This document shows positions 33,355 to 33,857 of a DNA stretch of 64,000 nt, one piece after another. Source of the DNA: a virus. Lineage: Duplodnaviria > Heunggongvirae > Uroviricota > Caudoviricetes. Made by a program: the position numbers and the translations under genes. Position 1 is the first letter of the stretch. Every line of letters begins with the position of its first letter. The DNA lies in the IMG/VR virus record IMGVR_UViG_3300008453_000586. The stretch is one strand, 5' to 3'. Under the pieces are notes generated by a model. That model did not search any database and had not been told where the DNA came from. It was given only the letters and a program-made list of their open reading frames with translations.

Positions 33355-33362
33355 TATCTTTG
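33355..33362 (+). promoter_or_regulatory. -7 box TATCTTTG with -33 TTG at 33332-33334, driving the suppressor tRNA
   Basis: tTTGcaagtatgaaaaacatatagTATCTTTGtacttg; the tRNA begins 14 nt after the box. Confidence 0.5.
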
Positions 33363-33375
33363 TACTTGTAAAAAC

Positions 33376-33447
33376 GTCCCATTAGTTCAGCGGTAGAATA
33401 GCGGTCTCTAAAACCGTTCGTCGTGGGTTCGAATCCCACATGGGGCA
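33376..33447 (+). tRNA. amber suppressor tRNA (anticodon CUA, reads UAG), tRNA-Trp-like anticodon arm
   Basis: Acceptor gtcccat/atggggc with A73; D-stem gttc/gaat; anticodon stem gcggt/accgt with loop cuCUAaa; T-arm gtggg-TTCGAAT-cccac. The anticodon arm GCGGTCTCTAAAACCGT differs from the canonical tRNA-Trp CCGGTCTCCAAAACCGG essentially by CCA to CTA. Confidence 0.8.
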
Positions 33448-33506
33448 CAAACACTTTACATTTTTTAGAAAAATGATATATTTATAATAAACAAAAATTA
33501 GAACAA

Positions 33507-33857
33507 ATGACTTAGATTAACAATCAAAAATTAAGAGTTGTCACAAGACGTGACTTAAACATTTCTACACAAGCGGTGCAATCGGCACACGCAGCCATTG
33601 ATTTTCAACATGACCACCCAGAGGTAGCGTCACAATGGCAAACAAAATCAAATTATTTAGCATTATTAACTGTCGCTGATGAAGAAGCGTTAATCAAATT
33701 GATTACCAAAGCTATTCTTCTAGGAATCAAACACACTATTTTCCGTGAACCAGATTTGGGTAACGTGATTACAGCTGTCGCATTTGAACCAACAGACGCA
33801 GCCAAGAAACTTACGAGCTCATGCCCGTTGATGGGTAAAGAAATAATAACATTTTAA
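33507..33857 (+). CDS. PTH2-family peptidyl-tRNA hydrolase with an in-frame TAG at codon 3
   Basis: Frame ATG ACT TAG ATT AAC AAT CAA AAA TTA AGA GTT GTC ACA AGA CGT GAC TTA AAC ... translates to M T * I N N Q K L R V V T R R D L N I S T Q A V Q S A H A A I D ... LLTVADEEALIKLITKAILLGIKHTIFREPDLGNVITAVAFEPTD. This matches PTH2 motifs lvvRtDLkM, aAQcsHAa and DAGrTqiapGs.TvlaiGP. The conserved VVRtDL segment lies upstream of the GTG used by the ORF track (33576) and downstream of the TAG at 33513-33515. Confidence 0.65.

Follow-up and report, generated by a model that had tools for sequence, protein, structure and literature searches.

The stretch of DNA analysed here, referred to as the window, comprises 64,000 nucleotides (nt) of a tailed phage genome (Caudoviricetes, IMG/VR record IMGVR_UViG_3300008453_000586). 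It carries an amber-suppressor tRNA gene with anticodon CUA (tRNA-CUA) and, directly downstream, a gene of the peptidyl-tRNA hydrolase 2 (PTH2) family in which the third codon is TAG. We suggest that the two genes form a conserved two-part module, in which synthesis of PTH2 depends on the phage's own suppressor, and we put the probability of this reading at roughly 0.7. Read-through of the UAG in PTH2 is strongly supported by comparative sequence data. The window has 33.5% GC and dense coding, chiefly on the plus strand, and is part of a jumbo phage genome; closely related contigs are 306-362 kb long. A megablast search with 10 kb against the GenBank phages gave a sole match of 80 nt, or 1% of the query.

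In brief, the PTH2 gene begins with an ATG at 33507, 59 nt downstream of the tRNA-CUA gene, and the reading frame continues past the TAG through an ATT at 33516 to the TAA at 33855-33857. The first ATG, GTG or TTG after the TAG is the GTG at 33576, where the open reading frame (ORF) found with the usual genetic code of bacteria (code 11) begins. That ORF (33576-33857, 93 aa) is a truncated artefact, and an exact-sequence look-up of it gave no record. Against the Pfam PTH2 profile (gathering score 23) the protein with its N-terminal extension scores 34.7 bits and covers profile positions 2-102; begun at the GTG, it scores 25.5 bits and covers positions 21-102. In the family profile, the segment KLRVVTRRDL aligns to residues 2-13 of the solved archaeal PTH2 proteins, which start just 1-3 residues earlier, and in the PDB profile matches 1rzw and 2zv3 align to the same segment from their own residues 2-4. 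The AlphaFold model of a 97%-identical homologue (predicted local distance difference test score, pLDDT, 89.7; predicted template modelling score, pTM, 0.83) has coil at residues 1-8, strand beta1 at 9-14 and helix 1 at 19-36. Foldseek aligns the model to 2zv3, 1q7s, 3erj, 1wn2 and 1xty with template modelling (TM) scores of 0.73-0.77 and E values of about 1e-8. Because beta1 occupies residues 9-14 while the GTG corresponds to residue 24, the N-terminal segment is indispensable; judged by the model, a start at the GTG would remove beta1 and the start of helix 1. The assignment to PTH2 and the presence of essential sequence between the TAG and the GTG, both proposed in an initial annotation made from the letters alone, are thus borne out.

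The equivalog level of NCBIfam is not reached, with 31 bits against a cut-off of 126 for NF003314 and 30 against 82 for TIGR00283. By its sequence, the protein belongs to a divergent, phage-specific PTH2 subfamily. Residues Q25, H28, D83 and T89, which we take to be catalytic following the assignment in the literature, are invariant among the homologues. The residue inserted at the UAG falls, according to the model, in a disordered N-terminal tail, and its identity is probably immaterial, read-through itself being what matters. The region around the TAG has no significant RNA structure (z = -1.6), and synonymous-site conservation is not clearly raised in the first 13 domain codons (0.59 versus 0.58 and 0.49).

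PTH2 loci were gathered from viral contigs (19), metagenomes (80, found with a profile built from 12 sequences), contigs of metagenome-assembled genomes (MAGs; 4) and the GenBank records of LR756500, LR756501, Alice and Myrna. The PTH2 N-terminus is on the contig in 88 non-identical loci, which share 34-95% identity. In 83 of the 88, the PTH2 domain is closely preceded by an ATG, 1-13 codons and an in-frame TAG. This TAG is the third codon in 42 loci, the fifth in 18, the fourth in 11 and the second in 5, and leaders of 9-13 codons occur. Since the leader codons vary widely (ACT, AAA, AAT, AAG, ATG, CAC, GGC and others), it is the TAG itself that is conserved. No canonical start lies ahead of the RxDL motif in 75 of 84 distinct TAG-bearing genes, and in six more the sole start is inside beta1. 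The segment from the TAG to the GTG is conserved at the protein level among homologues. On this comparative evidence, the TAG is neither a sequencing error nor a pseudogene lesion. The codon after the TAG begins with a purine in all 83 cases and is ATT in 67; among Ile codons at this place 67 of 68 are ATT, as against about 45-60% of the internal Ile codons of the same genes. A purine at position +4 is the classical favourable context for amber suppression, and the context of the TAG fits efficient suppression.

The TAG-bearing lineages include low-GC jumbo phages (24-35% GC), two high-GC contigs (65-67% GC) with the leaders ATG GAA CCG TAG GTA and ATG TTC TAG GTA, and the 462-kb and 735-kb genomes of Al-Shayeb et al. 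The subfamily was found solely in phage-like contigs and mis-binned MAG contigs; a profile scan of genome contigs for cellular or prophage copies gave four matches only, all on phage-like MAG contigs. Database homologues are of two kinds, proteins of 116 aa starting MTQINN and proteins of 93 aa starting at the GTG. Public proteins that start MTQINN or MKQINN (entries P0001-P0034 and others) come from a gene caller that translated TAG as Q, and the same genes on long JGI/ENA contigs are listed as truncations of 93 or 106 aa, many without a Pfam match. The Q of the MTQINN homologues was considered as a sign that Gln is inserted at the UAG and was rejected; the DNA has TAG at this place, code 11 does not yield the listed protein from it, and the Q stems from the translation table of the caller.

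Two loci have unusual arrangements. In the 735-kb genome LR756501 (locus L027, 678165-698485), the PTH2 gene near 9989-10380 of the locus has two TAGs, one at codon 3 and one in mid-domain. Two different tandem tRNA-CUA genes (12421 and 12499) lie 2.4 kb 3' of it, and the flanks of the locus show no gain in coding density with TAG as sense. In locus L011 (9203-10351), a PTH2 N-terminal fragment, MK-TAG-VHPKLVVITRRDL, continues in frame into an ORF resembling an HNH endonuclease, after which comes a second PTH2, complete and TAG-bearing. This looks like a homing-endonuclease insertion or a duplication at the PTH2 gene.

The tRNA-CUA gene was recognised by ARAGORN as a 73-nt tRNA with anticodon CTA at 33376-33448, one of 17 tRNAs in the window, and by Rfam RF00005 at 33376-33447 with 64.8 bits against a gathering score of 29, as the initial annotation had claimed. 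The cloverleaf is regular, with G1-C72 and A73; the anticodon stem has 5 bp, the variable loop has 5 nt and the T-loop is TTCGAAT, and the 3' end reads GGGGC A CAA. The anticodon loop, CU-CUA-AA (33406-33412), has 7 nt, U33 and a purine at position 37. Among 66 distinct tRNA-CUA genes found beside PTH2, a set chosen by anticodon so that the CUA is invariant by construction, 98.3% of the stem cells hold canonical pairs and each position shows 2-6 pair types. Because stem pairing is kept across 66 distinct sequences, we regard these genes as functional tRNAs under structural selection, and not as relics.

We found no close parent for tRNA-CUA among the tRNAs of the window or of LR756500, including the phage Trp, Gln and Lys tRNAs, and its identity to the phage's own tRNAs is at most 0.68. 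Comparison with the E. coli tRNAs gave no significant match, the best being tRNA-Asn with E = 0.1, and the neighbours of tRNA-CUA in phage databases carry the labels Sup, Pyl, Lys and Trp. The initial annotation took the anticodon arm for a one-base variant of tRNA-Trp, as in the Su7 suppressor. This did not hold up; the likeness is confined to the anticodon loop, and the phage's own tRNA-Trp differs in the acceptor stem, the anticodon stem and the discriminator. A tRNA-Pyl has a 6-bp anticodon stem, a 3-nt variable loop and a small D-loop, and is accompanied by pylS/pylBCD genes. The tRNA-Pyl label given by ARAGORN, which derives from the anticodon alone, does not agree with the standard 5-bp anticodon stem, the 5-nt variable loop and the TTCGAAT T-loop; no pyl gene search was made. 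The identity elements A73 and G1-C72 are ambiguous for the amino acid. In eight loci (L045, L046, L067, L072, L079, L088, L091 and L096), two tRNA-CUA genes of different sequence types flank PTH2. The upstream type has G1-C72 and A73, and the downstream type has U1 or C1 with G73 and a Gln- or Trp-like acceptor end. The two types may be charged with different amino acids.

For co-occurrence we took the 42 loci whose flanks both reach 1.5 kb or more, and scored any tRNA-CUA within 3 kb. Loci with the early TAG have a tRNA-CUA in 37 cases and none in one, and loci without the TAG have one in a single case and none in three. Most commonly the tRNA ends about 60 nt 5' of the PTH2 ATG; otherwise it lies 0.3-1.3 kb 3', and several loci have one on each side.

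Neither the window nor LR756500 shows genome-wide recoding of TAG. With code 11, the window has 87 ORFs over 90.7% of its length, which end in TAA (76), TAG (7) or TGA (4). Its coding density, 0.904 under code 11, becomes 0.917 when TAG is read as sense, and the controls with TGA or TAA as sense give 0.910 and 0.923. Six of the seven TAG-terminated ORFs are on the plus strand, and read-through of those six adds just 1-28 codons before a back-up stop. A search for split genes joined by TAG and codon-model screens of the window revealed no mid-gene TAG. The codon-model screens are blind to a TAG within about 10 codons of the start, and a separate leader screen was therefore added. Its other candidates (51269, 60992 and 37204 in the window, 254760 in LR756500) are chance-like, each with a good ATG context shortly after the TAG. 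A cross-locus BLASTP screen for conserved in-frame TAG, TGA or TAA gave matches that were swamped by out-of-frame and antisense ORFs of homologous DNA. A 905-aa tail-fibre-like gene in the window is intact under code 11, and the flanks of about 30 long loci show no density gain specific to TAG as sense.

LR756500 is a complete genome of 462,018 bp. Its coding density is 0.903 under code 11, against 0.901 if TAG is sense, and each of its 20-kb bins follows suit; 30 of its 633 genes end in TAG. It has a single tRNA-CUA, at 110,652, about 0.85 kb from PTH2 (111,496-111,837), where TAG is again codon 3. The initial annotation had proposed looking for in-frame TAG codons in other genes; none that is convincing was found in the window or in the complete LR756500. 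At least in LR756500, the suppressor and PTH2 look, from their sequences, like a dedicated pair.

A Bacteroidota-type promoter-like element precedes tRNA-CUA and is identical in loci L001 and L004. Bacteroidota promoters follow a -33/-7 pattern. Such a pattern has 16 matches in the window where 4.75 are expected, and none of 100 shuffles reaches 16, so that the promoter noted in the initial annotation is plausible. Copies of the class TTTG, 19-20 nt, (TAG)TATnTTTG stand just 5' of nine plus-strand genes, the extended box TAGTATnTTTG being shared among them. The enrichment of this pattern in the window suggests a Bacteroidota host. No terminator-like site was found on the plus strand between tRNA-CUA and PTH2, the first one after the tRNA being at 34355. 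Judged by its pattern only, the element is likely the start of a transcript with tRNA-CUA, PTH2 and an ORF of 123 aa (ORF123) that has no Pfam match. ORF123 probably lies on this transcript, as no terminator-like site precedes 34355. The features are listed in the table.

Table. Features of the tRNA-CUA/PTH2 region and of the related Alice and Myrna loci
Feature	Position	Strand	Basis or detail
Bacteroidota-type promoter-like element	33331..33362	+	TTTG (33331-33334), 20 nt, TATCTTTG (33355-33362)
tRNA-CUA, putative amber suppressor	33376..33447	+	anticodon 33408-33410; A73; CCA not encoded
PTH2 leader ATG ACT TAG	33507..33515	+	start, one sense codon, amber codon 33513-33515
PTH2-family gene, 116 codons including UAG at codon 3, plus stop TAA	33507..33857	+	Pfam PF01981, PDB profile, AlphaFold/Foldseek
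ORF123, 123 aa, function not assigned	33977..34348	+	ORF list; no Pfam match
Terminator-like hairpin and T-run	34355..34382	+	first plus-strand site 3' of the tRNA
RF1-like release-factor gene with two in-frame TGA	30587..31264	+	TGA 30701-30703 and 30740-30742; PCRF and RF-1 domains
CCA-adding enzyme	35646..36827	+	Pfam PolyA_pol 117.5 bits, and RNA-binding domain
Promoter class copies before genes	2142, 25320, 31292, 33331, 35611, 48155, 52274, 54264, 58329	+	pattern match
Alice (L024), ATG TAG in frame before annotated PTH GTG	91,710-91,720
Myrna (L025), GTG TAG in frame before annotated PTH GTG	33,030-33,040

About 2.2 kb 5' of the PTH2 start is a gene resembling release factor 1 (RF1), the factor that competes directly with an amber suppressor. 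Two in-frame TGA codons interrupt this gene. Read across the TGAs, it scores 61.8 bits with Pfam PCRF and 83.2 bits with RF-1. Its NCBIfam scores are 192 bits with prfA and 100 with prfB. It has the RVPPTE (PPT) and GGQ motifs, and domain 1 is absent. More than 12 relatives have the TGAs at identical positions, code-11 callers show only the C-terminal 133 aa, and there is no tRNA-UCA in the window. In some relatives (L042 8350-8365, L082 7905-7920, L066 4190-4205) the second site is CTT TAG C, after which the gene continues in the +1 frame; this is the prfB frameshift motif with UAG substituted for UGA. Cys replaces the TGA at the first site in L042 and L048, and Ser at the second site in L054. 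We know of no description of a prfB-like CTT TAG C site in RF1. From the sequences, the phage seems to encode both sides of the UAG decision, both gated by stop codons. In L008 (about 1700-2110), the RF1-like gene is broken just before GGQ by unrelated sequence, which could be an intron or a homing-element insertion.

The tRNA-CUA gene does not encode its CCA end and therefore needs a CCA-adding enzyme, for which the window has a gene. RNA and tRNA maintenance genes stand around the module (21498-22973, 35646-36827, 50121-51257 and 52638-54038); the set consists of a phrog_850 'RNA-binding protein', the CCA-adding enzyme, a T4 Rnl1-type RNA ligase and an ATP-dependent DNA ligase. Genes for DnaJ and ClpP lie upstream of the module in relatives. 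Three other tRNA calls in the window, 30369-30455 (Met), 39010-39095 (His) and 39363-39447 (Ile), are 85-87 nt long, which is unusual for their isotypes. The Met and Ile calls have lower Rfam scores of 40.9-52.5 bits and the His call has no Rfam match; all three may be mis-assigned or carry insertions.

We propose that transcription from the promoter-like element would give a precursor RNA with the tRNA and, 59 nt on, the PTH2 mRNA. A ribosome would initiate at AUG 33507 and reach the UAG at codon 3. If RF1 wins there, only a dipeptide would be made, to be released or dropped off; if tRNA-CUA, which we expect to be charged and to decode UAG, wins, translation would go on and give the full PTH2 fold. 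The output of PTH2 would be the logical AND of its own mRNA and an active suppressor, and would drop as RF1 activity climbs. Through such a feed-forward gate, the supply of an enzyme that recycles peptidyl-tRNA would follow the extent of UAG read-through, or of termination failure, in the infected cell. With the gate in the leader, a failed pass would cost a di- to penta-peptide only, and because the N-terminal tail is disordered any amino acid would be tolerated at the UAG. A regulatory purpose of this kind, tying the recycling enzyme to the level of read-through, is plausible.

Several observations weigh against a dedicated module. The loci are phylogenetically related, so the counts given above are not numbers of independent events. 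A tRNA-CUA occurs with a TAG-less PTH2 in XacN1, in the type represented by L019-21, which is related to the Lak phages, and in L121; the PTH of XacN1, checked as a target of the XacN1 suppressors, has no TAG. In Alice and Myrna the sequences are ATG TAG GTG and GTG TAG GTG, where the GTG right after the TAG is the annotated PTH start, and because this canonical start directly follows, read-through is optional in these two phages. Their tRNA-CUA lies 130-250 nt 3' of PTH and is labelled tRNA-Ser in the Myrna record. A promoter-like TTGACA...TAnnnT sequence is placed so that transcription could start at the first start codon, and a leaderless PTH mRNA is possible in these phages. As to the enzyme, the profile alignment shows no counterpart of the Lys in the archaeal GK motif, and the score is far below the NCBIfam Pth2 cut-off; the substrate may differ from that of canonical PTH2. 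Because the protein is divergent and without this Lys, hydrolase activity is a prediction for it. The near-invariant ATT after the TAG is also predicted by termination followed by re-initiation at AUU.

This re-initiation was the other possibility in the initial annotation, a start at a non-canonical codon. ATG-x-TAG would then be a real mini-ORF of two codons, PTH2 would restart at the abutting AUU or GUN, and tRNA-CUA would have another job; control could act via initiation factor 3 (IF3) or peptidyl-tRNA drop-off, as with the lambda bar minigenes. AUU is a rare start codon known from infC, its frequency after the TAG is far above that among internal Ile codons, and the annotated GTG starts of Alice and Myrna agree with a restart. 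Against it, the TAG is followed in thirteen lineages by GTA, GTT, AAC or AGT, codons that are not plausible starts, the mid-gene TAG of LR756501 needs decoding, some leaders are 9-13 codons long, and the near-obligate adjacency of tRNA-CUA would be left unexplained. We therefore regard re-initiation as quite improbable. Nor do we favour, giving it only a small chance, recoding of the code-15 type, with TAG as sense in many, typically late, genes outside the window and the PTH2 TAG as one among many. Phage TAG recoding with suppressor tRNAs is well documented and often limited to late genes, TAG-recoded Lak phages carry a related PTH2, and the window is 64 kb of a genome of about 340 kb, so that UAG targets such as late genes may be in the other 280 kb or so. 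However, the window has no other convincing in-frame TAG, six of its plus-strand genes end in TAG, its tail-fibre-like gene is intact, the flanks of about 30 long loci show no TAG-specific density gain, and the complete LR756500 uses the standard code yet has the module. The TAG is, moreover, always in a short leader and not scattered, unlike drift-like recoding.

The tRNA-CUA might instead serve mainly UAG read-through of host or phage genes, for host takeover or counter-defence, with PTH2 and the RF1-like factor clearing stalled or dropped peptidyl-tRNAs and the PTH2 TAG acting as a dosage coupler. That PTH2 adjoins tRNA-CUA even without a TAG (L019-21 type, L121), that the RF1-like gene, a CCA-adding enzyme and an RNA ligase are in the region, and that standard-code jumbo phages have suppressor tRNAs without known targets all speak for such a role. 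It overlaps with the module proposed here and does not contradict it, but a benefit of reading through other stops is without direct evidence, and TAG-terminated phage genes have back-up stops 1-28 codons on; we hold it to be rather unlikely. Gene decay or a sequencing artefact, with a 93-aa product from the GTG at 33576 as the only product, if any, would agree with the ORF listed by code-11 callers. It is refuted by the comparative data and has practically no probability, as the TAG is at the same place in more than 80 diverged loci from independent assemblies and the segment from TAG to GTG is conserved as protein and forms beta1. We thus retain the view that PTH2 needs UAG suppression by the suppressor encoded immediately upstream, a claim of the initial annotation that gains from the conservation in about 80 loci and from the lack of a terminator-like site between the two genes, while its alternative of a start at the ATT is weakened.

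The proposed gate resembles known systems in part. The prfB gene for release factor 2 (RF2) has an early in-frame UGA (CUU UGA C) and is autoregulated by +1 frameshifting, sensing its own product. PTH2 is likewise a termination or recycling gene with an early in-frame stop that would report on stop recognition; unlike prfB, it keeps to the zero frame and depends on a dedicated tRNA, and what it would sense is RF1, not its own product. The real counterpart of prfB here is the neighbouring RF1-like gene, with CTT TAG C and a +1 shift in some relatives. The lambda bar minigenes are two-codon ORFs (AUG-sense-stop) that promote peptidyl-tRNA drop-off, which is cleared by Pth. AUG-sense-stop also heads the pth-like gene here, whereas the bar minigenes are not known to be fused in frame to a hydrolase gene or linked to a suppressor tRNA. 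Synthetic amber designs reportedly place one or more amber codons near the start of the gene. According to PMC7969014, a synthetic coherent feed-forward loop with an amber suppressor drives suppressor tRNA and target together and removes leak. Unlike engineered amber loops, the tRNA-CUA/PTH2 pair is natural, conserved and tied to one enzyme family.

Phages recoded from TAG to Gln (code 15), such as crAss-like and Lak phages, have suppressor tRNAs and code-change modules (Ivanova 2014; Borges et al., 10.1101/2021.08.26.457843; Peters 2022, PMC9523058), and some gene families are preferentially recoded in them. As in these phages, there is a phage tRNA-CUA, an in-frame UAG and a standard-code host, and code-15 stops have been proposed to gate expression until the suppressor is made. 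In contrast to them, the genome is otherwise standard (in the window and in LR756500) and TAG still terminates genes. The sole clear in-frame TAG has a fixed place in the leader, at codons 2-5, of one gene family linked to the tRNA, and the gated gene is for a translation-recycling factor and is neither structural nor a lysis gene. XacN1 and Alice, where a 'tRNA-suppressor (cta)' is annotated, share with our phage a tRNA-CUA in a non-recoded genome. The authors of the XacN1 genome found no suppressor target by reading through terminal TAGs (PMC5852040); in our case a target is named, and it stands at a gene's 5' end and not at a 3' stop. We found no description of PTH2 arranged with a suppressor tRNA, amber codon or read-through in the openly searchable full-text literature, and the statement of the initial annotation that the arrangement was undescribed survived this search. 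The recoding survey of Borges et al. does not mention a hydrolase, no mention of suppressor tRNAs or of peptidyl-tRNA hydrolase is made in the huge-phage paper with which LR756500 and LR756501 were released, and a 2026 jumbo-phage survey treats suppressors in recoded genomes only. New here is an amber gate on a single gene, placed in the leader and tied to a suppressor of its own, while the standard code holds for the rest of the genome.

The arrangement is also a problem for annotation, as code-11 pipelines truncate the family to 93 aa or miss it and code-15-capable callers silently print Q. A version of the module is present in cluster C mycobacteriophages, which infect M. smegmatis, and leader and tRNA together take less than 200 nt and can be moved into reporters.

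The role of suppressor tRNAs in non-recoded large phages has been an open question, and a concrete, conserved target can now be named. Stop-codon gating appears usable on one gene and not just genome-wide, and the gate would be linked to the machinery of termination failure, PTH2 and the RF1-like factor. The module is plausible as a halfway stage towards code 15, and is the natural equivalent of synthetic amber switches. We further speculate, tentatively and with more doubt than belief, that the tRNA-CUA/PTH2 pair works by itself as a sensor of how UAG read-through and RF1 termination balance, that it moves horizontally, and that it is conserved in phages ranging from the Bacteroidota-type jumbo kind to high-GC actinophages. 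The RF1-like factor would in turn be gated by in-frame UGAs or by a prfB-like CUU UAG C frameshift, and pair and factor would jointly form a phage-encoded circuit by which termination efficiency is set and buffered in standard-code hosts. If so, this would be the first natural function for orphan suppressor tRNAs, and the pair could be the seed of whole-genome TAG recoding.

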